Position numbers and translations under genes: made by a program. A DNA stretch of 64,000 nt from an uncultured Gemmatimonadales bacterium (GTDB lineage: Bacteria; Gemmatimonadota; Gemmatimonadetes; Longimicrobiales; RSA9): NCBI GenBank assembly GCA_963798845.1, contig CAWCUS010000002.1, forward strand, positions 288,001 through 352,000, given 5' to 3'. Below, in pieces: positions 5,041 to 21,214 of this stretch. Numbering within the stretch: the stretch's first letter is position 1; every line of letters begins with the position of its first letter. Below the pieces are notes generated by a model, which worked only from the letters and a program-made list of their open reading frames with translations, ran no database searches and was not told the DNA's origin.

Positions 5041-5970
5041 ATGAGCCGTACCCTCGAGTCACCGATCCGTTCGTTCGCCGAGCTGAAGGCTCGCGCCGCC
5101 GAAGTACCGCCCGTGCCGGTGGCCGTGGTGGCCGCCGAGAGCCCGTCGGCGCTGGCTGCCGTCGCGGCCGCGGCGGCGGCCGGAATCGCGCTGCCGGTGC
5201 TTGTTGGCGATGGCGCCCGGATCCGGGACGTCGTTGCGGCAGAGCGGATCCGCGGTCTCGACGGTGCCCGGTGGGTGGAAGCGGCGTCGCCCGAGTCCGC
5301 TGCGTCGATCGCGATCGAGCTCGCCCGGGCGGGCGAGGTGGGGATGCTGCTGAAAGGCGCGCTGCGGACGGACCAGCTGCTGCGCGCGACGCTGGACCGG
5401 GAGAACGGGCTCCGCACCGGCCGCCTTCTCTCGGACGTCCTGCTTTACGAGGACACGCTCTCGGGCTCGGTCCGCCTGGTGGGCGTGACGGACGGCGGGA
5501 TCAACCCGGCGCCGGACGCCGACGCGCTGCGCCGGATCGTGGCCAACGCCGTGGCCGTCTTCCGGGCGCTGGGCGTGGCCAGGCCGCGTGTGGCGCTGCT
5601 CAGCGCCACGGAGATGGTGACCGACGCGGTCCCGTCCACGGTCGTGGCCCGCCAGGTGGCCGACTGGGCGTCGAGGGAGCTGCCGGACGCCGACGTGGAC
5701 GGTCCGCTCGCCCTCGACAACGCCCTCATCCCTTCGGCCGCCCGCGCCAAGGGGATCACCGGTCCCGTGGCCGGCTGCGCGGACATCATGGTCACCCCCG
5801 GGATCGACGCCGGCAACATCCTGGGCAAGGGGGTCAAGTACCTCGGCGGGTCCATCACGGCGCACGTGGTCGTGGGGGCGAGAGTTCCGATCCTGATCCC
5901 GTCGCGGGTGGAGAGCGCCGAAGACAAGCTGCACTCCATCGCCTTCGGGGCGCTGGTGGGCGCGCCGTGA
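5041..5970 (+). CDS. ptb: Phosphate butyryltransferase (PTA/PTB family)
   Basis: LLKG..T, TDGGIN, DGPLALDNA, AGNILGK, SR.ES motifs; coupled to buk. Confidence 0.85.
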   Translation: MSRTLESPIRSFAELKARAAEVPPVPVAVVAAESPSALAAVAAAAAAGIALPVLVGDGARIRDVVAAERIRGLDGARWVEAASPESAASIAIELARAGEVGMLLKGALRTDQLLRATLDRENGLRTGRLLSDVLLYEDTLSGSVRLVGVTDGGINPAPDADALRRIVANAVAVFRALGVARPRVALLSATEMVTDAVPSTVVARQVADWASRELPDADVDGPLALDNALIPSAARAKGITGPVAGCADIMVTPGIDAGNILGKGVKYLGGSITAHVVVGARVPILIPSRVESAEDKLHSIAFGALVGAP

Positions 5971-7053: not shown

Positions 7054-7791
7054 TCAGAAGCTGAACGCCGCCGCGCCCACCATCCACTCGGCGCCCGTGT
7101 CGAAGGCTACATCGTTGGCTTCCGCCGTCTTCGGCGGGACCGTCAGACGGATCGCCTCCTGCCAGTGATCGCGGGCGATGAACAGGTAGTTGGAGAGTGC
7201 CCCCAGCATCACGGTGCTGGACAGCTTGTCGTTCCCCAGCTCCCGGGCCAGCGCCAGCGCAGGGAAGGTGAGCAGCGTGATCCCGCGCGCTTCCGTTCTC
7301 GCTTCGAGGTCGCGAGGGTAGCCGGCGGTCTTGAGCGACTCGATGCTCGGCGCGATCCGCTGGTCGTTCACGAGCACGATGCCGCCCGGCTCCACCAGCG
7401 ACAGGTGCCGCGCGGCCTCGAGGCGCTCGAACGCCACGAGGAAATCGGCCTCGCCTTCCGGGATGGAGGAGGAGAGGGCCGCGTCGCCGAAGCGCACGGC
7501 GGTGAGAACCGTGCCGCCCCGCTGCGACATTCCGTGCACTTCCGAGGTCAAGACCTGGTGCCCTGCCAACGCCGCGGCCGTGGCCAGCACCCGTGTGGCG
7601 AGGACGGAGCCCTGACCGCCGACTCCCGCAAGCACGATGTTCGTCACATCGCCGTGAGCGACAGGGCGGACGCTTCCGCCGCGGTCGGACGCCTGCTCGA
7701 CCGGGCCTGCCGCTCCCGCGGTCAGCTCTTCCAGGTCCGTGGCCGCGCCCTGCAGGTCCTCGGACACCGACACCCTCGTGCTATCGGTCAC
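7054..7791 (-). CDS. iorB: Indolepyruvate:ferredoxin oxidoreductase beta subunit
   Basis: AGVGGQG and SEVHGMSQRGG motifs; directly downstream of iorA. Confidence 0.9.
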   Translation of the reverse strand: MTDSTRVSVSEDLQGAATDLEELTAGAAGPVEQASDRGGSVRPVAHGDVTNIVLAGVGGQGSVLATRVLATAAALAGHQVLTSEVHGMSQRGGTVLTAVRFGDAALSSSIPEGEADFLVAFERLEAARHLSLVEPGGIVLVNDQRIAPSIESLKTAGYPRDLEARTEARGITLLTFPALALARELGNDKLSSTVMLGALSNYLFIARDHWQEAIRLTVPPKTAEANDVAFDTGAEWMVGAAAFSF

Positions 7792-10700
7792 GGGTCGCCC
7801 CCTTCCTCATGTGGTTGCTGGCCAGCTCCGCCGCGCGGCGGCCCGTGGCCACCGCCTGCGTCACAGTGCCGTGGCCGAACGCCGCATCGCCGCACGCGAA
7901 CACGCCCTGCCGCGACGTGGCCCCGGCGAAGTTGACGTCGATCCGACCGTTCGCCCGGATGCCGCTCCCGTCCAGGAACGCCAGGTCCGTCTGCTCTCCC
8001 ACGGCCAGGATCACCGCGTCACACTGCTCGATCTCCTCGCTCTCCGCCACGGGTACCGGGCGCCGGCGCCCGCTCCCGTCCGGCTCCCCCTGCGCCATGG
8101 CGATGGTCTCGAGCGCGGTCATCCGCCCGCCCTCTGCCACCACCCGGATCGGCGCCCGCTGGAACCGGAACGTCACCCCCTCCTCCCGCGCCTCCTCGAC
8201 TTCGTCGGGGATGGCGGGCATCTCGCGTTCCGTACGCCGGTAGACCACGTCCACCGTGGCGCCCAGCCGGCGGGCCGCGCGGGCGCAGTCGATGGCCGTG
8301 TTCCCGCCGCCCACCACCGTGACGCGGCGACCCAGCTCCACGGTCTCGCCGGCGTTGAAGCGGCGGAGGAACTCGAGCCCGCCCAGCACGGACCCGGGCG
8401 CGTCGACGGCGCCCTCGAGCGTGATGGCGCGAGCGGCGTGCTGGCCCACGGCCACGATCACCGCGTCGTGCTCGTCCGCCAGCTCCGCCAGCGTCGTGTC
8501 CCGGCCGATTCGGGCGCCCGTGCGGAACTCCACGCCAATCGCCGTGAACCGGGCCAGCTCGGCGTCCAGCACCTCGCGCGGGAGGCGGAACGGAGGGATG
8601 CCGCTCCGGAGCATGCCGCCGGGCGCAGCGTCGGCCTCGAAGACCGTGACGCGCCACCCCTTGCGACGGAGCTGCCACGCCGCGGCAAGTCCGGCGGGGC
8701 CCGACCCGATCACCGCCACCGAGCGACCGAGCTCCTCGCCCGGGGAGAGCGTGTCTGCCGGGTAGTTCTCGATCGCCCAGTCGCCCAGAAACTGCTCCAC
8801 CGCCCGCACCGATATCTTGTTCGGGCCGGCCGGGAACCGCTCCACCAGCGAGCGGTGGCGACCCGCGTACGTGGCCGCCTGCGGGAACCCGAGGGCGTTC
8901 ACGTCGTGGTCGCAGGGGTGGGGACAGACACGGGCCGAGACCGCAGGCAGCGGATTCGAGCGCAGCACGACCTCGAGCGCGTCGGCGAGCCGCCCCTGGT
9001 CCACCAGCTCCAGCATGAGCGAGACGTCGATCCCCGCGTTGCAGTCGGCGCACACCTGCTGACAGAGCGTGCAGCCGTTGCAGAGGAGGTCGTTCACCGC
9101 GAGACGACCGTCGCTCTCCTCGATGGCCGGGCAACCCAGCCGGGTGCACGCAAAGCAGTCCGTGCATCGGTCGGCCTCGAGGAAGATCGGGTCGCCGAAC
9201 GAGACCTTCTCCTTGAGCACGCACGGCTTCTCGGCCACCACCACCGCCGGGGCGTCCGTCCCGGACGCCTGATCCAGAGTGCGCCATGCGCCCAGGAGGT
9301 CGTACGGGTCCACCGTGCGGACGTCCTCCACGCCAACGGCCCGGGCGATCGCGGCGATGTCGATGCGCGGCGCGTCGCCCTGGCCGAGCGTGTGCCCGGT
9401 GCCCGGGTGATCCTGGTGCCCGGTCATGGCGGTGGTCCGGTTGTCCAGCACCACCACCGTCCCCTTGCCCCGGTTGTAGACCACGTCCATCAGCCCCGTG
9501 ACGCCGGAGTGATAGAACGTGGAGTCCCCGATCACGCTCACCACCCGCTTCGCATCCGCCGGCGCCAGCACCTTCGCCATGCCGTGCGCCATGCCGATGG
9601 AAGCGCCCATGTTCATGCACGCATCCATGGCATCCAGCGGCGCGAGCGCGCCGAGCGTGTAGCAGCCGATGTCCCCGCTCACGATCGCATCCATGCGCCC
9701 CAGGGCGTGGAACACGCCGCGGTGCGAGCACCCCGGACAGAGCGCCGGCGGCCGTGACGGCAGCGCCGCGGGTACGTCCGCACCCGCCCCGGCGCCGTCC
9801 GCCTCCTCACGGGGAGTGACGCCCGGCCCGGCGACCGCGCGACGAAGCAGCCCCACGCTCAGCTCGCCATACCGTGGCCACGCACGCGCCTCCACCGCCA
9901 CGCCGCGCGCCCGGATCTGCTCCTCGAGGAACGGCTCCAGCTCTTCCGCAACGAACAGCCGCTTCCCCGCGTGCTCCTCAGCGAACTGCCGGATCGCAGC
10001 CTCCGGGAGTGGATACGTCATCCCGAGGCGGAGCACCGGCGCCGCCGGGAAGGCCTCCCGGACGTAGAGGTAGGGGACACCGGCGGTGATGAAGGCGACG
10101 TCGCCTTCGCCCGGCTCCGCTTCCGCCCACCGCTCGGCTTCCGCGGCGAGCGCCGGCATCCGCTCCTCCTCGATCCAGCGGTGGCGGATCCGGCCATGGG
10201 CGGGGAGCACCACGTTCTTCTGACGATCCTTGTGATACGCCCGAAGTCCCACGGGCTCCCGCTTCCCGGCTTCCACCGGCCCCGTGCCGTGGCTCAGGCG
10301 CGTCGTGGTCCGGAGCAGCACCGGCGTGTCGTACCGCTCGGACAGCGCGAAAGCCGCGGCCGTGTAGCGCCGCGCGTCCGCCGGCGTCGACGGCTCCAGA
10401 AGCGGGATGCGGGCGTGGCGGGCGAACAGGCGGTTGTCCTGCTCGTTCTGAGACGAGTGCATGCCGGGGTCGTCGGCGCTCACGACCACCAGCCCGCCGT
10501 TCACCCCCATGTATGCGGACGAGAAGAGCGGGTCGGCCGCCACGTTCACGCCGACGTGCTTCATCGTGGCCAGCGCCCGAGCGCCGCCCAGTGACGCGCC
10601 CACAGCCACTTCCAGCGCCACTTTCTCGTTCGGCGACCACTCGCAGTCGACGCCGCCGAGGTGCGAAAGCGCTTCCAGGATCTCCGTGCTCGGCGTGCCC

Positions 10701-10864
10701 GGGTAGCCGGCGCCCACCCGCACCCCGGCTTCCCACGCCCCCCGCGCGATCGCCTGGTTCCCCGACAACGGCAGCCGCCGGCCCCCGGACCCGCTACCGG
10801 AAGCGACGCCCACCCACGCGCGCTCCTGCCTCTCTGGCCGCGCTGCGGCCCTTCTATCCGTCAT
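7781..10864 (-). CDS. iorA: Indolepyruvate oxidoreductase alpha subunit fused to a GltD-like FAD/NAD(P)H oxidoreductase
   Basis: SGNQAIARG, YPGTPSTE, DDPGMHSSQNEQD, CPGCSH, GDIGCY, GDSTF; two ferredoxin Cys motifs; then RVCPHPC, GSGPAG, GIPPFRLP, GGGNTAID, YRR, GDA. Confidence 0.9.
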   Translation of the reverse strand: MTDRRAAARPERQERAWVGVASGSGSGGRRLPLSGNQAIARGAWEAGVRVGAGYPGTPSTEILEALSHLGGVDCEWSPNEKVALEVAVGASLGGARALATMKHVGVNVAADPLFSSAYMGVNGGLVVVSADDPGMHSSQNEQDNRLFARHARIPLLEPSTPADARRYTAAAFALSERYDTPVLLRTTTRLSHGTGPVEAGKREPVGLRAYHKDRQKNVVLPAHGRIRHRWIEEERMPALAAEAERWAEAEPGEGDVAFITAGVPYLYVREAFPAAPVLRLGMTYPLPEAAIRQFAEEHAGKRLFVAEELEPFLEEQIRARGVAVEARAWPRYGELSVGLLRRAVAGPGVTPREEADGAGAGADVPAALPSRPPALCPGCSHRGVFHALGRMDAIVSGDIGCYTLGALAPLDAMDACMNMGASIGMAHGMAKVLAPADAKRVVSVIGDSTFYHSGVTGLMDVVYNRGKGTVVVLDNRTTAMTGHQDHPGTGHTLGQGDAPRIDIAAIARAVGVEDVRTVDPYDLLGAWRTLDQASGTDAPAVVVAEKPCVLKEKVSFGDPIFLEADRCTDCFACTRLGCPAIEESDGRLAVNDLLCNGCTLCQQVCADCNAGIDVSLMLELVDQGRLADALEVVLRSNPLPAVSARVCPHPCDHDVNALGFPQAATYAGRHRSLVERFPAGPNKISVRAVEQFLGDWAIENYPADTLSPGEELGRSVAVIGSGPAGLAAAWQLRRKGWRVTVFEADAAPGGMLRSGIPPFRLPREVLDAELARFTAIGVEFRTGARIGRDTTLAELADEHDAVIVAVGQHAARAITLEGAVDAPGSVLGGLEFLRRFNAGETVELGRRVTVVGGGNTAIDCARAARRLGATVDVVYRRTEREMPAIPDEVEEAREEGVTFRFQRAPIRVVAEGGRMTALETIAMAQGEPDGSGRRRPVPVAESEEIEQCDAVILAVGEQTDLAFLDGSGIRANGRIDVNFAGATSRQGVFACGDAAFGHGTVTQAVATGRRAAELASNHMRKGATRDR

Positions 10865-11049: not shown

Positions 11050-11520
11050 CTATGTCCTCGCGACGTCCCCGCCAGCACCGCGCCGCCGCACCAGAAACCG
11101 GAGCTCGCCCGCCTGGACAACCTCGCGGCCCGCCCTCAGCTCCGCCGACAGAGTCACCACACCCCGGTCTCCCTGCCGCGAAACCCGCTTCGACGACACC
11201 TCGAGCGCCACGTGCACCTCCGACCCGGGCACCAGCGGGGCCACGAAGTCCCAGGTCAGCCCCAGGAACGCGATCAGCGTCCCCCGCGTCAGCCCGCGCC
11301 GGTTCAGCAGACCGGTCGCCACGGCAAGACCCAGCGCACCGTGGGCAATCCGTCGGCCGAACACCGACTGCGCCGCGTACGACTCGTCCAGGTGCAGCGG
11401 GTTCACGTCCCCGGACACAGCCGCGAACGCCTCCACGTCCGCCTGCGTCACGACCCGGCTCCCGGTCAGGTAGCCGCGGCCCACCTCGAAGTCGTCGAAC
11501 GTCAGGGATTCCTCGGGCAT
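11050..11520 (-). CDS. MaoC family (hotdog fold) dehydratase
   Basis: FAAVSGDVNPLHLD hydratase-2 motif, IAHG; SD CAGGAG before ATG 11520. Confidence 0.85.
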   Translation of the reverse strand: MPEESLTFDDFEVGRGYLTGSRVVTQADVEAFAAVSGDVNPLHLDESYAAQSVFGRRIAHGALGLAVATGLLNRRGLTRGTLIAFLGLTWDFVAPLVPGSEVHVALEVSSKRVSRQGDRGVVTLSAELRAGREVVQAGELRFLVRRRGAGGDVART

Positions 11521-11604
11521 CGTCGGCTCCTGGTCACGCGAAGGCGCTCGGTCCCCGGTGCTCCTCCGCGTGTCCGCGTGAAGACCCTTGACACCCGGGC
11601 CCCG

Positions 11605-11633
11605 TTGGCGACGTATTACAGCAACACTACGAT
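11605..11633 (+). promoter_or_regulatory. Putative sigma70 promoter of paaX and the bcr operon
   Basis: TTGGCG-N17-TACGAT in an AT-richer intergenic patch, 22 nt upstream of the paaX ATG. Confidence 0.5.
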
Positions 11634-11655
11634 CGTTAACCATTCGTGACAAGAG

Positions 11656-12513
11656 ATGCCCGCTCGACGTCCCCAGGACCTGGTGTTCACGCTCTTCGGC
11701 GATTTCCTGCTGCACCGGCCATCGCCGGTGTGGGTGGGCAGCCTGATCGCGCTGCTGGAGCCGCTGGGGCTGAGCGAAACGAACGTGCGGACGGTGCTGT
11801 CGCGGATGGCGGGGAAGGGTTGGCTGAGAGCGGAGCGGGCGGGTCGCCGCAGCTATTACGCGCTGACGGGGCGTGGCCGGCGGCTTCTGGAGGAGGGGGA
11901 GACGCGGATCTACCGGCCGCGGGATGCGGGGGGTTGGGACGGGGAGTGGACGCTGCTGGCGTATTCGATTCCGGAGGAGCAGCGGGGTCAGCGGGACCGT
12001 CTGCGGGTTCGCCTGGAGTGGCTCGGGTTCGGTTCGCTGGGGAACGGGCTGTGGGTGACTCCGCACGACGTCGCCGACCCGGTGCGTGAGATGGCGGATG
12101 AGCTGGAGGTGAGGGAGTACGTGGAGGTGTTCCGCGGCCGGCACCTGGGCTTGGGCGACGCCCGCGAGCTGGTGGGTCGCTGCTGGGATCTGGCGGGGCT
12201 GAACGCGCGTTACGAGGCGTTCATCGAGCGTCATCTGGACGGGTGCGTGGCGCTGAAGGAGGAGGGCCATGCGTCCATCGAGCCGCGGGACGCGTACGTA
12301 CGGCGGTTCCGGCTGGTGCACCAGTACCGGGACTTCCCGCTCCAGGACCCGTTCCTCCCCAGGGAATTGCAGCCTGAGCACTGGGCGGGGGAGTGCGCGC
12401 TGAGCCTGTTCAACCATTACCACGAGCTGCTGGCGGCGCCGGCGGACCGTTTCGTGGAGCCGCTCTTCGAAGCTGGAAGTTCACGAAGGCGGCCGGCCGT
12501 TGTGGTCAGGTGA
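11656..12513 (+). CDS. paaX: PaaX family transcriptional regulator
   Basis: LVFTLFGD, VRTVLSRM, YYALT, WDGEW, LGFG..NGLW, WDL, DPFLP.EL.P..W motifs. Confidence 0.92.
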   Translation: MPARRPQDLVFTLFGDFLLHRPSPVWVGSLIALLEPLGLSETNVRTVLSRMAGKGWLRAERAGRRSYYALTGRGRRLLEEGETRIYRPRDAGGWDGEWTLLAYSIPEEQRGQRDRLRVRLEWLGFGSLGNGLWVTPHDVADPVREMADELEVREYVEVFRGRHLGLGDARELVGRCWDLAGLNARYEAFIERHLDGCVALKEEGHASIEPRDAYVRRFRLVHQYRDFPLQDPFLPRELQPEHWAGECALSLFNHYHELLAAPADRFVEPLFEAGSSRRRPAVVVR

Positions 12514-12532
12514 GGCGACCGTCCGTGGTGGT

Positions 12533-12611
12533 ATCACACGAAGAGCGCGAAGCCACGGAGTCTCTCTCGTGATCTTCGTCTTCCTTCGTGGCCTTCCTGT
12601 CTTCGTGCGAT
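12533..12611 (+). promoter_or_regulatory. Long intercistronic stem-loop abutting the oah Shine-Dalgarno
   Basis: ATCACACGAAGA (12533-44) pairs with TCTTCGTGCGAT (12600-11); inner GAAGCCACGGAG pairs with CTTCGTGGCCTTC; AAGGAG follows immediately. Confidence 0.5.
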
Positions 12612-12623
12612 AAGGAGCCGAGC

Positions 12624-13733
12624 ATGCCGAAGTTCGAGCCGCGTCCCGCCGAGTCCTACGACTTCCGGGAGATCCTGTACGAGAAGGGCGACTGGGTGGC
12701 GCGTGTCACGCTGAACCGTCCCCACAACTACAACGCCTACTCGACGGAAGCGCTGCGCGAGCTGATCACTGCGTTCCACGACGCGGCGTTCGACGACAGG
12801 GTGGGCGTGGTGGTCTACACGGGCGCGGGGACGAAGGCGTTCTGCACGGGCGGAGACGTGAAGGAGTACGAGGTGGAGTACACGCAGCGCCCGCGTGACT
12901 ACTGGAAGTACATGCGGCTGTTCCGTGAGTATATCGAAAGCATCGTTCAGCTGGGCAAGCCCACCATCGCGCGACTGAACGGCATGGCTGTGGGCGGGGG
13001 CAACGAGAGCCAGATGGCGTGCGACCTCGCCGTGATGGCCGAGCACGCGTACATCGGCCAGGTAGGAACACGAGTGGGGAGCGTGGCGGCCGGCGGGGCG
13101 ACGCAGTGGCTCCCCCTGCTGGTCGGGGACCGGCGCGCCCGCGAGATCCTCATGTTCAACGGCCGGATCCCGCCGCGGCAGTGCCTGGACTGGGGTCTCG
13201 TGAACCGGGTGGTGCCGAGCGTGGTCAGGGACGGGGCGTTCATCGAAGGCGCGTCGTCGGAACAGATCGCAAAAGCGCAGAACGCGGAGGACGGCTACGC
13301 GATCTCGCTGGAGAAGCTGGACGAAACGGTAGCGGAGATGGCGGAGGTGCTGCTCCAGCAGTTCCCGGAATGCACCCGCTACACCAAGCAGCAGGTGAAC
13401 TTCTGGAAGGAGCTCGCGTGGAGCCAGACGGTCGGCCACGCGGGAGACTGGCTGGCGCTTCACTACTCGTCGCTCGAGCCGTGGGAAGGGATGCGGGCGT
13501 TCGTGCAGAAGCGGAAGCCCCGCTACATGGAGTTGCGGGAGCGCGCGGCGAACGGTGGCTCCAGCGAATTCCTGTGGGGCGCGCCGGGGGGCGACTGTCC
13601 CGCGTGCGGCGCGGAAGGTATTCCGACCGGCTTCAATTTCTGCGGCGCGTGCGGAGCCGAGCTGGGGACGGACGGGGCCGGCGCGGGGGCCCTCGAACCG
13701 CGGGACGCTGCGAGAGCCCCGGCGGGAGGGTGA
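12624..13733 (+). CDS. oah: 6-oxocyclohex-1-ene-1-carbonyl-CoA hydrolase (Oah/BamA/BzdY-like crotonase) with C-terminal zinc ribbon
   Basis: YNAY, TGAG.KAFCTGG..KEY, YMRLF, NGM.VGGG.E..MACD, GS...GGAT match the ring-opening hydrolase; tail CPACG..CGACG; SD TAAGGAG. Confidence 0.85.
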   Translation: MPKFEPRPAESYDFREILYEKGDWVARVTLNRPHNYNAYSTEALRELITAFHDAAFDDRVGVVVYTGAGTKAFCTGGDVKEYEVEYTQRPRDYWKYMRLFREYIESIVQLGKPTIARLNGMAVGGGNESQMACDLAVMAEHAYIGQVGTRVGSVAAGGATQWLPLLVGDRRAREILMFNGRIPPRQCLDWGLVNRVVPSVVRDGAFIEGASSEQIAKAQNAEDGYAISLEKLDETVAEMAEVLLQQFPECTRYTKQQVNFWKELAWSQTVGHAGDWLALHYSSLEPWEGMRAFVQKRKPRYMELRERAANGGSSEFLWGAPGGDCPACGAEGIPTGFNFCGACGAELGTDGAGAGALEPRDAARAPAGG

Positions 13734-13734
13734 A

Positions 13735-14502
13735 GTGGCATACCGGCACCTTCGCGTCGACACCGGCGCCGCTGTCGCCCGTGTGGTCCTGAATCGTCCT
13801 CCGCTGAACGTCCTGACCATCGAGATGCTGGACGAGCTGGTCGAGGCGATCGCGGCCGCCTCGGCGGATCCGGCGACGCGGGTGGTGGTGCTCACGGGGG
13901 AGGGCAGAGCCTTCTGCGCCGGGGTGGACGTGGCGGACCACACAGTCGAGCGCGTGGGAACAATGATCGAGTCGTTCTCCCGCGCCATCGGCGCGCTCCT
14001 GTCGATGGATCTTCCGGTGGTGGCGGCGCTGAACGGCGCCGCGCTGGGCGGCGGCCTCGAGCTCGCGCTGGCCTGCGACGTGGTCCTGGCGCGGGCGGGG
14101 TCCAAGCTGGGCCAGCCGGAAATCCGCCTCGGCGTCTTTCCCCCGGCCGCGGCGGCGCTGCTCCCCCGGCGCGTGGGAGTGCAGCGGGCGCTGGACCTGG
14201 TGCTCACGGGCCGCACGGTGACGGCAGAAGAGGCGGCCCCGATGGGGCTGGTCACGGCCGTGCTCCCGGCCGACGACTTCGGCGCGGCCGTGAACGACTA
14301 CGTGGCGCAGGTGGCCGGTCTCAGCCGGCCGGTCCTGGCGCTGGCGAAGCGAGCCGTGATCCAGGGGCTGGACCGGCCGCTGTCGGCGGCGTTGGTGGGG
14401 GCGGACACGCTGTACCTCAACGAGCTGATGGCTCTGCGCGATCCCCACGAGGGACTGGCGGCGTTCGCGGAGAAGCGCGCGCCGGTCTGGAGCGACGAGT
14501 AG
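13735..14502 (+). CDS. dch: Cyclohexa-1,5-diene-1-carbonyl-CoA hydratase (Dch/BamR-like crotonase)
   Basis: AFCAGVDVADH, LGGGLEL, GQPEIRLGVFPP, YLNELM, EGL.AF.EKR.P.W; operon context. Confidence 0.82.
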   Translation: MAYRHLRVDTGAAVARVVLNRPPLNVLTIEMLDELVEAIAAASADPATRVVVLTGEGRAFCAGVDVADHTVERVGTMIESFSRAIGALLSMDLPVVAALNGAALGGGLELALACDVVLARAGSKLGQPEIRLGVFPPAAAALLPRRVGVQRALDLVLTGRTVTAEEAAPMGLVTAVLPADDFGAAVNDYVAQVAGLSRPVLALAKRAVIQGLDRPLSAALVGADTLYLNELMALRDPHEGLAAFAEKRAPVWSDE

Positions 14503-14503
14503 C

Positions 14504-15697
14504 ATGGCGACACCGAAGCGCGAGATCCCGGCCCCGGAGCGGCTGCTGGACATCGACCTCTCGACCCCGCTCGACGAGGTGCTGGCCCGCTGCCGCGAGG
14601 TGGTGGAGGACGCGGAGTACCCGACCGTGCGGAAGTGGCGGGAGGGTGGTGGCAAGGTGCTCGGCCACTTCCAGGTCTACTTCCCCGAGGAGCTGGCGCA
14701 CGCGGCGGGCATGCTCCCGGTGAAGATCCGGGGCGGGCAGGTGGACCGGCGGGAAGCCGACTCCCGCTTCGGCTCCGCCATCTGCTCCATCCCCCGGACC
14801 ACGCTCGAGCTCGCCATGAACGGCACGCTGGTGCCGGACCTGTTCGTCACCCACCCGATCTGCGACGTGGCCCGCAACCTGGCGGGGATCTGGGAGCGCA
14901 ACGTGACCACGCCGGCGCAGATCCTCTACTTCCCGCAGAACCCCAACTCCCGCTTCTCCGCCGACTTCCTCACCGCGGAGTACCGGCGTCTGCTGGGCGA
15001 GATCGAGGCCGTCGTGGGCCGGACGGTGGCGGAGGACGAGATCCGCGATTCGGTGGCCCTTTTCAACGAGAACCGTCGCCTGCTGCGTGAGCTCTACGCC
15101 ATCAAGCGGGAGGAGCCGTGGCGCCTGCCGGTGGACGAGGCGTACGTGCTGGTGGCGCTGGCCGGGCTCATCCCCCGGGAGGAGCACAACCACGTGCTGC
15201 GCACGATCATCCCGCGCATCCGGGAGCGCGAGGCGAGAAAGCAGGACCGGATGCGTGTGGTGTTCGAGGGTGGGTTCTGCGAGCAGCCGCCTCTCGACCT
15301 GCTCCGGTCCATCGCCCAGTTCGTGTACGTGGTGGATGACGACCTCCTCATCGGCCTGCGCTGGATCACCGAGGACGTGGATCTGGCGGGCGATCCGGTG
15401 GGCAGGCTGGCGGAAGCGTACCTGGAGCGGTCGTCGTACAGCCCCGTGCAGCACGACCTGCGCAAGCCGAAGGAGCAGATGCTGCTGCAGCGGATCCTCG
15501 CCGCACGCGCCGAGGCGGCCATCGTGGCCGCGGCCAAGATGTGCGAGCCGGGTCTGGACGAGCAGGTGGCGTACTCCCAGGCGCTGGACCGCGAGAAGAT
15601 CCCGTACTTCGTCACCGAGTTCGAGGAGAACATGACGGCCTACGACCATCTGCAGATCCAGCTCGAGACCTTCGTCGAGAACCTGCTCTTCGAGTGA
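14504..15697 (+). CDS. bcrC: Class I benzoyl-CoA reductase subunit C (2-hydroxyacyl-CoA dehydratase family)
   Basis: [42 protein letters not shown]. Confidence 0.85.
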
Positions 15698-15705
15698 GGG
15701 GGCGC

Positions 15706-17037
15706 ATGAATCCGGTGACTGCGGACACGATCCACGGGCGGGCCTTCCGCCAGGGCAGGGAGCTCTTCGACGACTGGTACGGCCAGTTGACCCGCGCTCA
15801 CGAGACGGGCGAGCAGGCGGCGTACGTGTTCGTGATGGGCAGCCTGATGGAGATCCTGCGCACGTTCGGGCTTCACGGGGTCTTCCCGGAGATCAACTCG
15901 CTCCAGACTGCGGTGAAGAAGGTCTCGGACGGGTACCTGAGCCAGGCGGAGGACGAGGGCTTCTCGCCGGACGTGTGCGGCTACGTGAAAGCGGACTACG
16001 CCCTCCAGCGTCGCAACGGCGAGCACCCGCGCGGCATGATCCCGCCGCCGGCCATATCGGTGCTCACCAACGCGTGCAACACGTATCTCAAGTGGGGCGA
16101 GATCTGGGAGCGCATGTACGACGCTCCGGTCTTCACGGTGGACATCCCGCAGTCCCGCTCCGTTTCCGACAGCGCGGCGGGTGTCGGGTTCGCGGCCGAC
16201 CTGGAGTACGTGCGGCGGCAGCTGGACGAGCTGATCGAGGTGCTCGAGGGTCTCACGGGCAGGCGCTTCGACATCGACCGCTTCCGCGAGGTGCTGGGTC
16301 ACGTCAACGACATGGGGCGGCACTACCGGCGCGTGCTGGAGCTGAACGCCCGGGCGCCGGCCGCGTTCGACGCGGTGCTGGAGGGCACCATGTACCTGGG
16401 GGTGGCCAATGCGCTCCGCGGCACGAAGGAGGGCGCGGACTACTTCCGCGACCTGGCCGAGGAGCTGGAGCTGCGCATGGCCGAGGGCCGCGGGGCCCTG
16501 GGCGAGACGCCCGAGCGGCACCGCCTGATCTTCGTGGGCGTGCCCTGCTATCCGATCTTCTCGCGCTTTCACGCCATGTTCAGCGGGTGGGGCGGGGCGT
16601 TCGTGAGCTCCACCTACCTGTGGTTCGCCTCCGGCGGCCTCGACCTGGATTTCGAGTACGACCTGTCGCGCCCGCTGGAGAGCCTGGCCGAAGGCGTGCT
16701 GCGCGGCGTCCGCCGCGCCACGGACGCCATGCTGTTCCAGGACCGGCTGCTCATCGAGGCCGTGGACCGCTACCACGCGGACGGGGTGGTCTACCACCCC
16801 GTGAAGAGCTGTCGCACCGTCTCCACCAGCCTGGCCGACAGCCGCCGGGTGGTGCTCCGGGAGCGCGATGTTCTCGCTCTCTACATCGAGAGCGACATGA
16901 TGGACAAGCGGGTGGTCTCGGAAGCCCAGCTGAAGAACCGCATCGACGCCTTCTTCGAGGGGCTGGAGAGTCGGAGGCTGCGGATGAACGGCGCGGCCGC
17001 CGGCAGCGGCGCCGCCGCCAGCGAGGAGGTCGCATGA
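15706..17037 (+). CDS. bcrB: Class I benzoyl-CoA reductase subunit B
   Basis: [41 protein letters not shown]. Confidence 0.85.
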
Positions 17038-17903
17038 GCTACGCGGGCGGAGTGGACGTCGGCTCGACCCAGACCAAGGCCGTGGTGGTGGACGGGGACC
17101 GCCGCATCGTGGGCCGCAGCCTCATCGACACGGGGGCCAACGTGGTGGAGGCGGCGGAGAACGCGTTCGCGCTGGCGCTGGCGGAGGCCGGTCTCGAGCG
17201 CGACGACGTGGACTTCGTCATCGGGACCGGCTACGGCCGCTACAAGGTGGAGTTCGGCGACACCCAGGTGACGGAGATCGTGTGCCACGCCCGCGGGGCG
17301 GCGGAGATGTTCCCGGGCACGCGCACGGTGCTGGACATGGGGGGCCAGGACACGAAGGCGATCCGGGTGCAGCGCGGTGGCGAGGTCCTGGACTTCTGCA
17401 TGAACGACAAATGCTCGGCGGGCACCGGCCGCTTCCTCCAGTCGGCGGCCGCGGCGCTGGAGCTGGACCTGGCGGAGCTCGGGCCCACGGCGCTGCGGGG
17501 GCGTCGGCCGGTGCCCATCAGCACCACGTGCACCGTGTTCGCGGAGTCGGAGGTGCTGTCGTGGCTGGCGAGGGGTCGCAAGCTAGAGGACATCCTGCTG
17601 GGCGTGCACCAGTCCATCGCCAAGCGCTCGTTCGGCCTTCTCAAGCGGGTGGGCGTGGAGGAGGAGGTGACCTTCACGGGCGGGGTGACGAAGAACCCGG
17701 CCATGGTGCACGTGCTGAACGAGCTGCTCGGCACCGAGATGAACGTGGGCGCCGAGTCCCACTTCATCGGCGCTCTGGGCGCGGCCCTGTTCGCGCTCGA
17801 GCGGGCGGAGGGCGGGGTCATCCCCGCGGGCGATCTCACCGGCGCGGCCGCGGACGGCGATGCGGCCCGGAGCTGCGCCACGGGACGGGAGGTGGTCGCA
17901 TGA
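17034..17903 (+). CDS. bcrA: Benzoyl-CoA reductase ATPase subunit A (short, BzdQ-sized ASKHA activase)
   Basis: [52 protein letters not shown]. Confidence 0.8.
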
Positions 17904-18721
17904 GCTGCACGGCGGGGGTGGACGTCGGCTCGACGTACACGAAGGCCGCGATCCTCGACGACGCCGGCCAGTTGCTGGGCCGGAGCATGGCGCCGACCGG
18001 CTTCCGCCTGGAGGCGGCGGCGCGGGCGGCGCTGGACGCCGCGCTGGCCGAGGCGGGTGTCGACGCGGCGGACGTGGTCTACACCGCCACCACCGGCTAC
18101 GGCCGCAACCAGGTGGCGTTCCGCGACGTCCAGGCCACGGACCTGACGGCGCAGTCGTGGGGGACTCGCTGGTTCTTCCCGTCTACCCGAACGGTGCTGG
18201 ACATCGGCGGGCAGACCATGAAGGCCATGCGCGTGGACGACGCGGGCAAGGTCCGCTCGTTCCGCCTGAACGACAAGTGTGCCGCGGGCACGGGCGCGTT
18301 CCTGGAGAAGACGGCGCGCTACCTCGGCTACGGCCTCGAGGAGATCGGGATGCTCGTCCAGGGCGCGGAGGCGTCGGTGCCCATCAGCGGCGTGTGCGCG
18401 GTGTTCGCCGAGTCGGAGGTGATCAACCACGTGAGCAACGGGAGCCAGCCCGGCGAGATCATGCTGGGCGCCATGGAGTCGCTCATCGAGAAGAGCGTGC
18501 GGCTCATGAAGCGCGTGCAGATGGAGCCGGAGTTCACGCTGGTGGGCGGGATCATGCGCTTCCCCACCATGGTGCAGGTCATGCGCGAGCACCTGGCGGA
18601 GGGCGTCAACGTGCCGCCCGAGCCGCTGGTCCAGTACACCGGCGCCATTGGTGCCGCGATCCTCGCACGGCGCAGGCTGGAGAAGCTCGAGGCCGAGGAC
18701 GCCGAGGCCGCGGCCGCGTGA
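17900..18721 (+). CDS. bcrD: Benzoyl-CoA reductase ATPase subunit D (ASKHA activase)
   Basis: [46 protein letters not shown]. Confidence 0.8.
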
Positions 18722-18984
18722 GCGCGCCGGTGCCCGCACTCGACATCGGGCCGGCCGCCAGCGAGCGCGTCCGGGAGCGCGACGGGGCCCTGGCGCTGGA
18801 TGGCTGGACGCGACGCTTCATCGGCGCCCCGCCCCGTCTTGGGGAGATGGCGGCGCTCTACCGCTCGGTGGGCCAGGAGGTGCTGCTCGAGCCCCTGGAG
18901 GACGATGACCTGGCGCACGAGTGCGCCGGGTGCACGCTCGCCCTCTCCCTCTTTCGCGTCGTCTACACGAGGATCCCCCGATGA
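18718..18984 (+). CDS. Small hypothetical protein with CxxC, inside the bcr operon
   Basis: 4-bp overlaps with both neighbours (GTGA with bcrD, ATGA with had); 88 aa with GWTRRF..PRL.E...LY and ECAGC. Confidence 0.75.
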   Translation: MSAPVPALDIGPAASERVRERDGALALDGWTRRFIGAPPRLGEMAALYRSVGQEVLLEPLEDDDLAHECAGCTLALSLFRVVYTRIPR

Positions 18985-20003
18985 AGGCCGCTCTCTTCCA
19001 TGGCGCCAACCGCCCGCTCACCATCGAGGACATCCCCGTGCCGGAGCCGGGCCGCGGCGAGGTGCTGGTGAAGGTGGCGGGGTGCGGTGTGTGCCACACG
19101 GACCTCCACTACATCGACCACGGCACGCCCACCTTCAAGAACCCGCCGATGGTCCTCGGCCACGAGATCGCGGGCACACTGGCCAGCCCCGACCCGACCG
19201 GGCGGCTGCTTGAGGGCGAGCACGTGCTCCTCCCGGCCGTGCTGTCGTGCGGCCACTGCGACGCGTGCCGCGGGGGGCGGGAGAACATCTGCCAGAACGG
19301 GATCATGCTGGGCAACAACATCGATGGCGGGTACGCCGAGTACGTCGCCGTCCCCGCAAAGGACGTGTTCCGGCTCCCCGACGAGATCCCGCTCGTGGAG
19401 GGCTCCATCATCGCCGACGCCCTCACCACCCCCTTCCACGCGGTGATGAACCGCGGCCGCGTCCGCCCGGGCGACCGGGTGGTGGTGGTGGGGTGTGGCG
19501 GGGTCGGACTGAACGTCGTGCAGATGGCCGCCGTGGTGGGCGCTCGGGTGGTGGGCGTGGACGTGTCGCCCGAGAAACTGGCGTGGGCCGAGCGCCTGGG
19601 CGCGGAAGCCACGTTGAACCCGACCGGGGTGGAGCGCCCGGACAGGGCGCTTCGCGCCCTCACCGACGGCGGCGCCGACGTGGCGTTCGAGGCCGTCGGC
19701 CGCCCCGACACGCAGGCGCTGGCCGTGGACGCGGTGAAGACCGGCGGGCGCGTGGTCTTCGTGGGCTACAGCCCGAAGGCCATGGAGCTCAACGCCGGCC
19801 GGGTCATGTTCCGGGAGCTCGAGGTCGTGGGATCGCTCGGCTGTCGCCCGGTCGACTACCCGCGCGTCATCGACCTCGTCCGCCAGGGCCGCGTCGAAGT
19901 GACGGCGCTGGTGACCCGCCGCTTCACGCTCGACGAGATCGGCGACGCGTTCGACTTCCTGCGCAGCGGGGCATCGATCCGGAGCGTGGTGACCCCCACC
20001 TGA
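18981..20003 (+). CDS. had: 6-hydroxycyclohex-1-ene-1-carbonyl-CoA dehydrogenase (Zn-ADH, Had/BamQ-like)
   Basis: CGVCHTDL, LGHEI, structural Zn C..C..C...C, ADA.TTP, GCGGVG; operon context. Confidence 0.82.
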   Translation: MKAALFHGANRPLTIEDIPVPEPGRGEVLVKVAGCGVCHTDLHYIDHGTPTFKNPPMVLGHEIAGTLASPDPTGRLLEGEHVLLPAVLSCGHCDACRGGRENICQNGIMLGNNIDGGYAEYVAVPAKDVFRLPDEIPLVEGSIIADALTTPFHAVMNRGRVRPGDRVVVVGCGGVGLNVVQMAAVVGARVVGVDVSPEKLAWAERLGAEATLNPTGVERPDRALRALTDGGADVAFEAVGRPDTQALAVDAVKTGGRVVFVGYSPKAMELNAGRVMFRELEVVGSLGCRPVDYPRVIDLVRQGRVEVTALVTRRFTLDEIGDAFDFLRSGASIRSVVTPT

Positions 20004-20311: not shown

Positions 20312-21214
20312 TCAGTCCTCCTCTCTGGCCCGGGTGCGCCGGCGGGCAGCCGGCCCATAGAAGCGCTGGAGCGTGGTGCTCTGCCAGTCGGGGACCGTGC
20401 GCGGCTCCTCCTCCTGTCGACCAGCGTTGTCCAGGTCGTCCATCCCCGCGCGGGCGAAGATCCCGTCCACGTCGGTCTGGGCGCGTCGGCTCACGGGAAG
20501 CCCGCCGTACTGGGGGTACTCTGCCATGTCCCCGGCGAGGAGTCCGCCCACGACGACGCGCTTCTTTCGGCGCGCGAGCCGGACGCGGTCGACGGGGAGC
20601 AGGATGTGCCGGTCCACGGGCTCGAGGTCGAGCTTGTCCTCGTCCAGCGCCACGTCCAGAAAGCGAGCGCGCATCTCCGATGGGTCCATCAGGAGCCCGG
20701 TCACCCGGCCGACGTCGTTCCCGTCCGCTGTGACCACGGTCCAGCCACGCGGATCCTCGCCGGCCACGCGGTAGTCCTTCTCCAGGTCCGCCATGCGGCG
20801 CAGGTCGAGGTTGCCGTCCTGGCGGTCCTCGGGGGCGACCAGGTCGTGGTGAGCCCGGGCCGAGGTCCCGCCGTACACCGCGTCCAGGCGGCGCTCGAAG
20901 TCGGCGTCGAGCGCTTCGGGCTCCAGCGCGTACTCGGGCACCTCCTCGAGCCGCTCCCGCGTGAACCGGTCCACCCACACCGTCTTCTCCTCCACGTCGG
21001 CATGGGCGTGCTCCAGAGGCACGAGGACGTGCTTCTTCAGCAGCCCGAGGTCCACGTCGAGGTAGCGGAGGGCGCCGCTCCCGTCGAGGAGCATGTCGTC
21101 CACCTTCCCGACCTTCTCGTCGTCCTCACCCGTCCGTACGCGCCAGCCGCGCACGTCCCACGCTCCGTCCGGGAACGCGTAGTCGGACATGCGCGAGATC
21201 GGTCTCAGTGCCAT
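20312..21214 (-). CDS. Tandem PRC-barrel domain protein
   Basis: Two repeats of D.RGW.V...VG.V..L.D...R(Y/F)LDV; SD CAGGAGG. Confidence 0.85.
   Translation of the reverse strand: MALRPISRMSDYAFPDGAWDVRGWRVRTGEDDEKVGKVDDMLLDGSGALRYLDVDLGLLKKHVLVPLEHAHADVEEKTVWVDRFTRERLEEVPEYALEPEALDADFERRLDAVYGGTSARAHHDLVAPEDRQDGNLDLRRMADLEKDYRVAGEDPRGWTVVTADGNDVGRVTGLLMDPSEMRARFLDVALDEDKLDLEPVDRHILLPVDRVRLARRKKRVVVGGLLAGDMAEYPQYGGLPVSRRAQTDVDGIFARAGMDDLDNAGRQEEEPRTVPDWQSTTLQRFYGPAARRRTRAREED

Follow-up and report, generated by a model that had tools for sequence, protein, structure and literature searches.

A predicted operon for the anaerobic breakdown of aromatic rings, apparently under the control of a PaaX-type repressor, was identified in a Gemmatimonadota genome. 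Nine co-oriented and closely spaced genes (positions 11656-20003, + strand) with a four-subunit reductase core were found in the window, the 64-kb stretch of DNA that was analyzed, and as a whole they are moderately likely to represent a reductase operon of the 3-methylbenzoyl-CoA reductase (MBR; MbdNOQP) type, serving an upper benzoyl-CoA-type pathway and controlled by PaaX. As MBR-type reductases are widespread in uncultured lineages and are already auto-annotated as benzoyl-CoA reductase in public metagenomes, the gene content itself is not new and the new element is the pairing of PaaX with a reductase operon. To our knowledge, PaaX-type repressors have so far been known only from aerobic phenylacetate degradation. 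The proposed Gemmatimonadota placement was borne out by the named homologues with at least 66% identity, all of which came from Gemmatimonadota or Longimicrobiales.

The run starts with the gene for a paaX-family transcriptional regulator (11656-12513, +; 285 aa), followed by an oah-like crotonase (12588-13733, +; 381 aa), a dch-like crotonase (13735-14502, +; 255 aa), reductase gamma (BcrC/MbdN-like; 14504-15697, +; 397 aa), the catalytic reductase beta (BcrB/MbdO-like; 15694-17037, +; 447 aa), ATPase alpha (BcrA/MbdQ-like; 17034-17903, +; 289 aa), ATPase delta (BcrD/MbdP-like; 17900-18721, +; 273 aa), the conserved orf84 (18730-18984, +; 84 aa with a C-terminal CxxC), and a had-like Zn-dependent dehydrogenase (18981-20003, +). 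The gaps from paaX through the had-like gene (74, 1, 1, -4, -4, -4, 8, and -4 nt) indicate translational coupling, or something close to it, for eight of the nine genes, and with four overlaps of 4 nt and no gap above 74 nt the tightly coupled paaX-to-had run described in the sequence-only reading was reproduced. That reading had also called the operon complete, which held for the reductase subunits and the oah-, dch-, and had-like genes but not for a ferredoxin gene, found neither in the operon nor in the 64-kb window, nor for a CoA ligase gene, of which the operon has none. None of the nine genes contains internal stops, the reductase subunit lengths agree with those of the solved homologues, and the dch-like start was reassigned to the GTG at 13735, the product having the same length as its homologue in the related locus L002. 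No terminator was predicted in the 74-nt paaX-oah gap and the scanner accepted no sigma-70 consensus promoter between 11000 and 20600. The C-B-A-D order was found again in 70 of 80 related loci, the remaining 10 being interrupted by contig ends, so that the nine-gene run is beyond chance; at least one of the oah/dch/had homologues adjoined the reductase in 64 of these 80 loci and all three in 35.

Judged from its sequence, the enzyme belongs to the class I (ATP-dependent) aryl-CoA reductases and there to the MBR type, not the Thauera Bcr type. PDB searches matched gamma with MbdN (9g87_B, E 1e-155, 522 bits) compared to HadC (121 bits, ~1e-33) and BzdN (91 bits, 1e-24), and beta with MbdO (9g87_A, E 2.4e-137, 461 bits) compared to HadB (118 bits, ~1e-33) and BzdO (67 bits, 1e-17), with identities read from the alignments of ~64% to MbdN and ~55% to MbdO. 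Alpha and delta, both carrying a BcrAD_BadFG domain, matched MbdQ (9gai_D, E 3.7e-112) and MbdP (9gai_C, E 1.2e-82), respectively, and gamma carries an HGD-D domain. The likeness to MbdONQP (PDB 9g87, 9gai, 9gal, 9gba), a type that forms a permanent heterotetramer (PMC11971306), includes four subunits with one-to-one best matches, short ATPase subunits (269-289 aa), and the same Cys in beta and gamma, the latter having five in all, each common to MbdN; Cys127 and Cys166 occur in both alpha and delta. In contrast to Mbd, the query has the gene order gamma-beta-alpha-delta, neither a ferredoxin nor a CoA ligase gene in the operon, PaaX in place of the TetR-family MbdR described for Azoarcus sp. 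CIB (PMC4424350), and a Gemmatimonadota host instead of a denitrifying betaproteobacterium.

The C-B-A-D order and the dch, had, and oah companions are shared with BcrCBAD of Thauera aromatica and BadDEFG of Rhodopseudomonas. However, all four subunits scored below the cut-offs of the Thauera-type NCBIfam models (C 274/421, B 207/487, A 199/578, and D 141/313 bits), although the Bcr models were the top NCBIfam matches for C and B. Alpha is a short form, aligned with TIGR02259 over model positions 218-432 only and lacking the N-terminal extension that Thauera BcrA has, and representatives passing the BcrB cut-off, 34-37% identical to the query, formed their own clade. The earlier assignment to class I benzoyl-CoA reductase was thus retained as a four-subunit class I aryl-CoA reductase and revised in type to MBR/Mbd, the Bcr equivalogs lying far below cut-off. 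BzdNOPQ of Aromatoleum sp. CIB (PDB 8s02) belongs to the same radical enzyme family, with its three catalytic-cluster Cys conserved as Cys95, Cys128, and Cys373 of beta, which align with the BzdO cluster ligands (PMC11971306), and the Glu of the conserved "PE" motif in beta probably corresponding to Glu65. The query nevertheless matched it with just 67-91 bits, the Bzd regulator is BzdR, and the five Cys of gamma are too few for the six-Cys [8Fe-9S] site of BzdN (PMC11971306). The position of the BzdO acid/base His131 is occupied by Tyr in the query beta and by Phe in MbdO.

The HGD-D and BcrAD_BadFG domains are common to 2-hydroxyacyl-CoA dehydratases, several homologues are named "2-hydroxyacyl-CoA dehydratase" by NCBI, and indolepyruvate:ferredoxin oxidoreductase (IOR) and butyrate kinase genes lie close by, all of which would fit B/C/A/D being such a dehydratase with its activator in amino-acid fermentation rather than a dearomatising reductase. 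This already disfavoured reading is highly improbable, as there are two distinct, reductase-like ATPase genes, the MbdO/N scores are four times the HadB/C scores, and oah-, dch-, and had-like genes, rather than a CoA-transferase, accompany them. A quick maximum likelihood tree of 41 rows also separated a 16-row reductase clade, including the query and two rows passing the BcrB cut-off, from 25 dehydratase-like rows with an SH-aLRT of 100, such that both scores and tree uphold the proposed separation from the dehydratases.

For the companion enzymes, the top NCBIfam model of the oah-like product (ECH_1 domain) was TIGR03200 dearomat_oah (202 bits, cut-off 464), followed by BadI (169 bits), making it a candidate ring-opening 6-oxocyclohex-1-ene-1-carbonyl-CoA hydrolase. 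The dch-like product, a candidate dienoyl-CoA hydratase, scored 173.7 bits on TIGR03189 (cut-off 292.5), equal with generic enoyl-CoA hydratase models, and the had-like product (ADH_N and ADH_zinc_N domains) had TIGR03201 dearomat_had as its top NCBIfam model (254.6 bits, cut-off 338.65). None of the equivalog models (BcrA-D, Oah, Dch, Had, and PaaX) reached its curated cut-off, so that curated families do not establish the exact function. The physiological substrate of the same enzyme class under PaaX control might be a ring-substituted or other aryl-CoA and not benzoyl-CoA, such as 3-methyl-, 3-hydroxy-, or halo-benzoyl-CoA or a breakdown product of aromatic amino acids, with divergent hydratase, dehydrogenase, and hydrolase fitted to the ring substituent. 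The nearest solved homologue is a 3-methylbenzoyl-CoA reductase, the Oah, Dch, and Had scores are well under cut-offs trained with enzymes of the benzoyl-CoA pathway, a TPL/TnaA-family lyase recurs in the neighbourhood (7 of 80 loci), and the 3-hydroxybenzoate-CoA ligase model gave 396 bits for a ligase encoded divergently from paaX-maoC in L002. Such a substrate is possible but rather unlikely, since phylogenetic distance alone can account for the low model scores and the L002 ligase, at 591 bits, clears the cut-off of the benzoate-CoA ligase family (375) but not that of HbdA (396 vs. 1000 bits). MBR enzymes have also been reported as promiscuous, accepting benzoyl-CoA as well, which likewise speaks against it.

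In Escherichia coli and Pseudomonas, PaaX represses the aerobic paa catabolon and responds to phenylacetyl-CoA. The query regulator, encoded by one copy in the genome, has the same three-domain architecture (PaaX, PaaX_M, and PaaX_C, E 3e-24 to 4e-29) and matched the E. coli-type PaaX structure 8a39 (E 8.6e-46), but scored slightly under the TIGR02277 cut-off (255.2 vs. 264.55 bits). In contrast to its counterparts, it goes with a ring reductase of the anaerobic type and not with paaABCDE, and with PaaK not found in the genome and only a weak PaaA-like match, there is no canonical paa pathway for it to control. The synteny search showed that the noted linkage of paaX to the reductase is conserved: 16 of 80 loci, 11 from Gemmatimonadota and five from Chloroflexota/Anaerolineae, have paaX 5' of the reductase. 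In a phylum sample of 301 genomes, nine of the 14 close PaaX homologues (at least 51% identity) had the reductase B gene no more than 5 kb away, and paaX adjoined the reductase in only nine of 48 reductase-bearing genomes. Most of the others have a gene of the TetR family in its place (22 of 80 loci).

A candidate PaaX operator (11613-11655), a conserved ~43-bp palindrome with outer inverted half-sites GTATTACAG ... GTGACAAG around a central TACGATCGTT, ends 1 nt 5' of the paaX ATG within the 135-bp divergent intergenic region 11521-11655; its central palindrome is also listed separately (I7). As for the E. coli PaaX site, given as TGATTC-N27-GAATCA (PMC9493321), it is built from two distal, inverted half-sites over ~40 bp and overlaps the promoter region, with paaX probably autoregulated, but differs in its half-sites ATATTACAC / GTGACATAT and central TACGATCGTA. 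The motif was seen by eye 5' of paaX in 15 of the 16 related loci and was correctly placed by a scripted locator in nine relatives, all keeping the position directly 5' of paaX. A 50-nt matrix from these nine relatives, with the window left out, gave a top score of 28.4 bits at G000 C2:299608 (window position 11608) in the paaX promoter, compared to 7.6 bits for the second-best match genome-wide (4.26 Mb). The recurrent position of paaX and this conserved, genome-unique palindrome support PaaX control, and the operon appears to be switched by this PaaX-type repressor.

Divergent from paaX, the minus strand encodes a MaoC-type (R)-hydratase (11050-11520; PF01575, E 1.9e-23), an IOR alpha fused to a GltD-like NAD(P)H flavoprotein (7781-10768; 995 aa), and an IOR beta subunit (7054-7773). 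MaoC is 52% identical to that at the equivalent position in L002 and also occurs in L065 and L079. The IOR alpha part (residues 33-606) scored 646.6 bits on TIGR03336 (cut-off 650.9), PRK12771/GltD-like models covered residues 606-1021, and the ~1000-aa fusion was kept in ~100 of 120 clusters among the matches listed; IOR beta has a POR domain, with IOR-beta models reaching at most 199.7 bits, below their cut-offs. The fusion and IOR beta fill the slot held in L002 by the benzoate-CoA ligase, similar ligases being present in five of 80 loci, and no benzoate-CoA ligase orthologue was found genome-wide (best match 31% identity, 250 bits, cut-off 375). The fusion is a candidate source of aryl-CoA, low-potential electrons, or both. 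In subunit make-up, the fusion with IOR beta may resemble PadEFGHI (phenylglyoxylate:NAD+ oxidoreductase). PadEFGHI and IorAB are described as 2-oxoacid oxidoreductases that supply aryl-CoA to the benzoyl-CoA pathway in anaerobic phenylalanine degraders (PMC5109826); the query shares a 2-oxoacid oxidoreductase with an NAD(P)-linked module and differs by the fusion of IOR alpha to the GltD-like flavoprotein.

PaaX could also mainly control these divergent genes in aromatic amino-acid fermentation to arylacetyl-CoA, its place before the reductase genes having no regulatory meaning for them, as arylacetyl-CoA, the IOR product, is described as the classical PaaX effector (PMC5109826, PMC4424350), the window also carries a butyrate kinase and an ADP-forming acyl-CoA synthetase, and the operator sits in the intergenic region common to both directions. 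However, in relatives the divergent gene varies, being the ligase in L002 and something else in L042 and L075, but paaX remains with the reductase genes, the operator is retained directly 5' of paaX, and the short, terminator-free paaX-oah gap is followed by overlapping genes, rendering this explanation quite unlikely.

In the preferred reading of a PaaX-controlled MBR-type operon, the nine genes would be transcribed together, presumably at low oxygen. Gamma and beta would hold the FeS clusters and substrate site, alpha and delta would form an electron activator powered by ATP hydrolysis, and benzoyl-CoA or a close ring-substituted analogue would be reduced to a cyclic dienoyl-CoA, which the dch-like hydratase, had-like dehydrogenase, and oah-like ring-opening hydrolase would convert to a 3-hydroxypimelyl-CoA-type product. 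PaaX would bind the palindrome just 5' of the paaX start codon and repress this operon, probably along with the divergent maoC-IOR operon, until an aryl-CoA releases it. This effector is probably phenylacetyl-CoA or benzoyl-CoA produced by the neighbouring IOR::GltD enzyme, as proposed from the missing benzoate-CoA ligase orthologue. Counted against this reading are an oxygen-sensitive, ATP-costly reductase beside heme-copper oxidases (three matches in the genome) with narG not found in the genome, the missing ferredoxin gene, ligase orthologue, and sigma-70 consensus promoter, the missed curated cut-offs, the naming of the closest enzyme for 3-methylbenzoyl-CoA, the His131 to Tyr exchange, and the limited paaX adjacency (9/48). 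A further point against it is hemerythrin, which often lies nearby in relatives (12 of 80 loci) but was not found in the query genome.

The small orf84 had no Pfam family at E<=1 and no PDB match, and its Atlas matches were only unnamed clusters (0.85-0.88). Of the 80 loci, 27, drawn from several phyla, have a homologue 3' of the delta subunit gene, and what had been listed simply as an "orf" is therefore a genuine conserved small gene.

The nine-gene run paaX-oah-dch-bcrC-bcrB-bcrA-bcrD-orf-had, which the sequence-only reading had placed at 11656..20003 as a PaaX-headed class I benzoyl-CoA reductase operon, was present at these positions in both the gene model and direct translation. Spurious frames crowd raw ORF lists because the G+C content of the window is ~71%, and the model drew on a position-specific G+C model, Pfam/NCBIfam scans, and direct translation, all of which were consistent. 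The plus-strand run comprised paaX (11656-12513), an oah-like crotonase (12588-13733), a dch-like crotonase (13735-14502), the reductase subunits gamma (C, 14504-15697), beta (B, 15694-17037), alpha (A, 17034-17903), and delta (D, 17900-18721), an 84-codon gene (orf84, 18730-18984), and a had-like Zn-dehydrogenase (18981-20003), separated by consecutive gaps of 74, 1, 1, -4, -4, -4, 8, and -4 nt. A 135-bp spacer separated paaX from a divergent MaoC hydratase gene (11050-11520, minus strand), and Pfam/NCBIfam scans identified on the same strand indolepyruvate:ferredoxin oxidoreductase (IOR) genes encoding a 995-aa fusion of IOR-alpha with a GltD-like NAD(P)H flavoprotein in one frame (7781-10768) and IOR beta (7054-7773). 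The next gene downstream of the had-like gene was convergent (20312-21190, minus strand) and coded for a protein with two PRC-barrel domains; its identification as photosynthetic PuhA was rejected at 92 bits against the reaction-centre H model (cut-off 200). Elsewhere in the window, two minus-strand ORF pairs (54354-54914/54847-56472 and 49034-50176/50056-50685; an ADP-forming acyl-CoA synthetase and an ABC-F ATPase) each give the impression of one gene broken by a frameshift, since the ORFs overlap in different frames, and indels introduced during assembly may account for this. The reductase operon contained no frameshift break of the kind at 49034-50685 and 54354-56472.

Two PF06050 and two PF01869 domains were identified by Pfam in the four adjacent, overlapping reductase genes, such that two HGD-D-type subunits were encoded together with two different BcrAD_BadFG subunits as in class I aryl-CoA reductases, the alpha and delta subunits being paralogues with 45% identity. 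Class I enzymes are divided into BCR-, MBR-, and BZD-types (PMC11971306). A PDB sequence search returned an Mbd subunit (9g87/9gai set) as the best characterised match for all four proteins, nearly full length in each case: gamma with MbdN (E 1e-155; 377/397 residues aligned), beta with MbdO (E 2.4e-137; 419/447), alpha with MbdQ (E 3.7e-112; 261/289), and delta with MbdP (E 1.2e-82; 268/273). Identities to MbdO (~55%) and MbdN (~64%) were read off the HMMER alignments by eye. The matches to BzdO/N reached 1e-17 and 1e-24. Because all four Mbd subunits were matched, the reductase of this locus is, as judged from its sequence, an MBR-type enzyme and is predicted to work like MbdONQP. A Thauera-type Bcr identity was rejected, as the BcrCBAD equivalog models of NCBIfam (TIGR02259-63) were all below cut-off (C 274 vs. 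421, B 207 vs. 487, A 199 vs. 578, and D 141 vs. 313). Thauera-type Bcr models were nonetheless the best NCBIfam matches of the C and B subunits.

A 2-hydroxyacyl-CoA dehydratase was a further candidate. It was rejected on the presence of two activator-type genes rather than one coding for a homodimeric activator, on scores of 142-156 bits against HadB/C models with cut-offs of 700-750, and on the Mbd matches, since 2-hydroxyisocaproyl-CoA dehydratase HadB/C was matched at only ~1e-33 (beta, MbdO 461 bits vs. HadB 118; gamma, MbdN 522 bits vs. HadC 121) and activator proteins at 1e-66 and 1e-45. A phylogeny of the beta subunit also counted against it. A phmmer search over 1.84 billion representatives gave 1425 proteins, 150 of which were listed (87 full-length); 46 of these 87 were scanned against NCBIfam, and 40 of the scanned proteins plus the query were placed in a quick maximum likelihood tree, with rows labelled by NCBIfam scores rather than by named references such as MbdO/N and BcrB/C. 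In it, a 16-row reductase clade that contained the query and two rows above the BcrB cut-off was separated from 25 dehydratase-like rows with an SH-aLRT of 100. The query fell in an 8-row subclade (support 100) apart from the Thauera-type subclade (support 99). A grouping of the B and C subunits with dehydratases, the outcome against which the sequence-only reading had set its assignment, was thus not recovered.

Cys95, Cys128, and Cys373 of beta aligned with Cys95, Cys128, and Cys380 of BzdO, which are its three cluster ligands (PMC11971306). The Glu of the conserved "PE" motif was present in alignments with MbdO and HadB, and was assigned from this shared motif because the BzdO alignment stops short of it. 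At the position of the second acid/base residue of BzdO, His131 (PMC11971306), a Tyr was found in beta and a Phe in MbdO, and this His therefore seems specific to the BZD-type. The gamma subunit had five Cys, all common to MbdN, so that the double-cubane cluster of BzdN, which needs six, cannot be accommodated. Both alpha and delta contained Cys127 and Cys166, which by the HgdC literature would be the ligands of the bridging cluster.

For the steps after ring reduction, proteins of the right superfamilies for Dch, Had, and Oah were encoded beside the reductase, and a dearomatisation model was the best or tied best NCBIfam match of each, at scores below cut-off (dch-like, 174 vs. 293 bits; had-like, 255 vs. 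339; oah-like, 202 vs. 464). Neither a dedicated ferredoxin nor an aryl-CoA ligase was identified in or beside the cluster: the ferredoxin motif CxxCxxCxxxCP was absent from all frames of the window, and no benzoate-CoA ligase above the TIGR02262 cut-off was found in the genome (best 250 bits). The product of orf84 had no Pfam family, PDB match, or named Atlas cluster. It ended in a C-terminal CxxC and its gene directly followed delta in 27 of the best 80 among 216 related loci, from Gemmatimonadota, Anaerolineae, Blastocatellia, and Eisenbacteria, and an accessory role with MBR-type reductases may be its function.

The beta subunit belonged to a large set of relatives, with >120 clusters at 66-91% identity, many labelled "benzoyl-CoA reductase subunit B" by JGI, and all named clusters among those listed came from MAGs of Gemmatimonadota or Longimicrobiales. 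Scanning one genome per species yielded 216 relatives, and the analysis covered the best 80 loci; beyond Gemmatimonadota these included Chloroflexota/Anaerolineae, Acidobacteriota, Planctomycetota, Eisenbacteria, Elusimicrobiota, and Marinimicrobia, along with an Acidiferrobacteraceae, an Ilumatobacter, and Marine Group II archaea, at 53-73% identity. Neighbours were counted by tblastn with the window proteins over these 80 loci. The C-B-A-D order was complete in 70 and the remaining 10 stopped at a contig edge, while any oah, dch, or had homologue was present in 64 and all three in 35. Among 301 Gemmatimonadota genomes sampled across the phylum, beta was detected at E<=1e-100 in 48 genomes representing 34 of 127 genera.

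The regulator carried PF07848 (winged-helix), PF20803 (PaaX_M), and PF08223 (PaaX_C) domains, all above gathering scores, and matched structure 8a39 (E 8.6e-46), with a marginal miss against TIGR02277 (255.2 bits; cut-off 264.55). By this architecture it is assigned to the PaaX family, marginally under the equivalog cut-off, and appears to have no paa pathway to control: the genome contained no phenylacetate-CoA ligase (PaaK) at E<=1e-10, a weak PaaA-like match (119 bits vs. cut-off 280), and no second operator site. Two weak matches to PaaA/PaaC-like di-iron oxygenases (119 and 68 bits; cut-off 280) were located at C6:626456-628723, on another contig of the genome carrying the window, with no PaaX operator nearby and no PaaK in the genome. 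The wider synteny search suggested by the sequence-only reading showed that the pairing of paaX with a reductase recurs, in 16 of the best 80 of 216 loci, namely 11 Gemmatimonadota (52-61% identity) and five Chloroflexota (40-43%). In the 301-genome sample, a PaaX homologue was found at E<=1e-30 in 17 genomes, 14 of them >=51% identical; of these 14, nine lay within 5 kb of beta on the same contig, two had beta on another contig, and beta was absent in three.

A long palindrome recurred in the 200-nt regions ahead of paaX across these 16 loci (among the best 80 of 216 relatives), and its consensus in nine Gemmatimonadota relatives was ATAT-n-a-CA ... TACGATCGTA ... TG-t-n-ATAT; the same half-sites were visible upstream of paaX in the Chloroflexota loci. 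A symmetrised 50-nt matrix was built from the nine relatives without the window and run over both strands of the genome (4,262,375 bases), giving one outstanding match of 28.4 bits at C2:299608 (window 11608) with the runner-up at 7.6 bits. The candidate operator (~11613-11655) abuts the paaX start codon and consists of outer half-sites and a central TACGATCGTT, its right arm matching less well than the right arms of the relatives. The E. coli PaaX site is TGATTC-N27-GAATCA (PMC9493321); the candidate is like it in the ~40-bp span and distal inverted half-sites but unlike it in sequence. The palindrome is unique in the genome and fits the PaaX-type layout of two inverted half-sites ~27 bp apart. 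No promoter was called by a consensus scan of the operator region, and terminator predictions were at chance level.

The place of a CoA ligase in this locus appeared to be taken by the IOR fusion. A benzoate-CoA ligase-like gene was present in five, IOR-alpha in five, IOR-beta in four, and MaoC in three of the best 80 of 216 loci, and four of the IOR-bearing loci were Chloroflexota, where the IOR genes follow the reductase on its downstream side. The ligase of L002, one of the 80 loci, was divergent from maoC-paaX and scored 591 bits against a benzoate-CoA ligase family cut-off of 375, and of the indirect clues to benzoate or benzoyl-CoA being the substrate it is the strongest; its closest match in the genome of the window was 31% identical. 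The fusion architecture was kept, ~100 of the 120 clusters listed being ~1000 aa long, and clusters were observed in Longimicrobiales/Gemmatimonadota, Bipolaricaulota, and others, which suggests a seemingly undescribed NAD(P)-linked aryl-2-oxoacid oxidoreductase. In three clusters the fusion and a close reductase homologue shared the same longest-contig size (32922, 19323, and 61118), suggesting that the two may be linked in the nearest relatives. In anaerobic degraders of phenylalanine, IORs turn arylpyruvates into arylacetyl-CoA (PMC5109826).

The genome (4.26 Mb, 6 contigs, 96% complete) carried single copies of the reductase, paaX, and IOR genes and three heme-copper oxidase subunit I matches, and searches of it for narG and hemerythrin found none; a TIGR04246 (nosZ) scan gave no match in it or in the control. 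This redox setting, with oxidases and no narG, does not fit well with an ATP-costly enzyme that is oxygen-sensitive in characterised members. A butyrate kinase gene (5967-7043, plus strand; TIGR02707, 456 bits vs. cut-off 289) lay beside the IOR genes. The kinase and the ADP-forming acyl-CoA synthetase are a hint that acyl-CoAs support substrate-level phosphorylation, although the organism has oxidase genes as well. Sequencing runs matching the window included no RNA, and three DNA metagenome runs from one study contained 0.06-0.22 of its sampled words.

By analogy with class I benzoyl-CoA reductases (PMC11971306; PMC5658619), ATP hydrolysis by alpha/delta would drive the transfer of an electron from a reduced donor to beta/gamma, the proposed site of aryl-CoA reduction to a dienoyl-CoA, and the dch-like hydratase, had-like dehydrogenase, and oah-like hydrolase would carry out the subsequent ring opening. 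PaaX would bind the palindrome and be released by an aryl-CoA, as proposed from PaaX biology (PMC9493321) and aryl-CoA-sensing regulators (PMC4424350). Since the IOR::GltD fusion occupies the ligase place in the locus comparison and IORs make arylacetyl-CoA, it may supply the thioester both inducing and feeding the pathway, or else act in electron recycling. It is conceivable, if rather unlikely, that the whole forms a self-contained regulon leading from phenylalanine or aryl-2-oxoacids to ring reduction in an oxidase-bearing Gemmatimonadota, where the fusion replaces benzoate-CoA ligase and makes aryl-CoA from an aryl-2-oxoacid (phenylpyruvate, or phenylglyoxylate to benzoyl-CoA) with electrons passing to NAD(P) or the reductase, PaaX senses the thioester and switches on the MBR-type reductase, orf84 is an unrecognised accessory, and MBR-type clusters in at least 10 phyla including Marine Group II archaea, often beside hemerythrin and a tyrosine-phenol-lyase/tryptophanase-type gene, mark a widespread, overlooked capacity of supposedly aerobic lineages for reductive dearomatisation.

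To our knowledge, the biochemistry of class I benzoyl-CoA reductases comes almost only from denitrifying and phototrophic Proteobacteria. Known regulators of their clusters include BzdR and BadR/BadM. Another is MbdR, which is of the TetR type (PMC4424350). Control by PaaX, if it holds, would be a fourth regulatory solution, in a pairing that recurs in Chloroflexota, and would add anaerobic-type ring reduction to the range of the PaaX family, known from aerobic phenylacetate catabolism. A full-text literature search found no paper linking PaaX to benzoyl-CoA reductase, and in PMC9493321 the passage on the reductase is introductory and unrelated to PaaX. No paper found by the search had both Gemmatimonad and benzoyl-CoA reductase in its title or abstract; PMC10803450 contained no mention of Mbd or Gemmatimonadota, and benzoyl-CoA reductase genes are attributed to Krumholzibacteriota (10.1101/2025.11.25.690425) and bcr genes are reported for Krumholzibacteriota with none in the Gemmatimonadota representative (PMC10936416). 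What is new is the pairing with PaaX and its candidate operator, together with the replacement of the ligase by IOR; the gene content, already auto-annotated in public data, is not new. The spread of the MBR-type enzyme over many uncultured phyla from soil, groundwater, and low-oxygen sea water bears on estimates of aromatic carbon turnover without oxygenases, and the candidate operator and compact four-gene reductase constitute directly testable material.

Further recurrent partners were identified by Pfam/NCBIfam scans of neighbours in eight loci followed by tblastn across the best 80 of 216. A TetR-family gene was found in 22 of the 80 (L055:5645-6271 and 21 further loci) and, instead of paaX, headed the operon in a second Gemmatimonadales lineage with ~60% identical beta and an SDR gene between oah and dch. 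The two other carriers in the family of the window's genome were of this ~60% TetR-lineage type, the PaaX-type operon being closer to operons of other families, and it may have been acquired by transfer. Hemerythrin genes were found in 12/80 loci, and HHE genes beside the reductase (L002:14322-14867, L075:15027-15494, L079:16716-17258, L068:15135-15689, and L019:8238-8792) spanned several phyla and archaea, with a ScdA_N/DUF2249 gene nearby in L075; they may help an oxygen-labile enzyme by sensing oxygen or by repairing FeS clusters. In 7/80 loci there was a tyrosine-phenol-lyase/tryptophanase-family lyase (PRK13238, 689 bits), which in relatives, Marine Group II archaea among them, came immediately after the reductase operon (L002:14870-16740, L079:15271-16719, and L068:18985-20388; corresponding region of the window 38005-40019, minus strand) and directly followed had in L002 and L079. 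The window's own lyase gene (38631-40019) was 74% identical to that of L002, and a GNAT acetyltransferase gene stood beside the lyase in both the window and L002; in the genome carrying the window, both genes are displaced and lie 18 kb from the operon.
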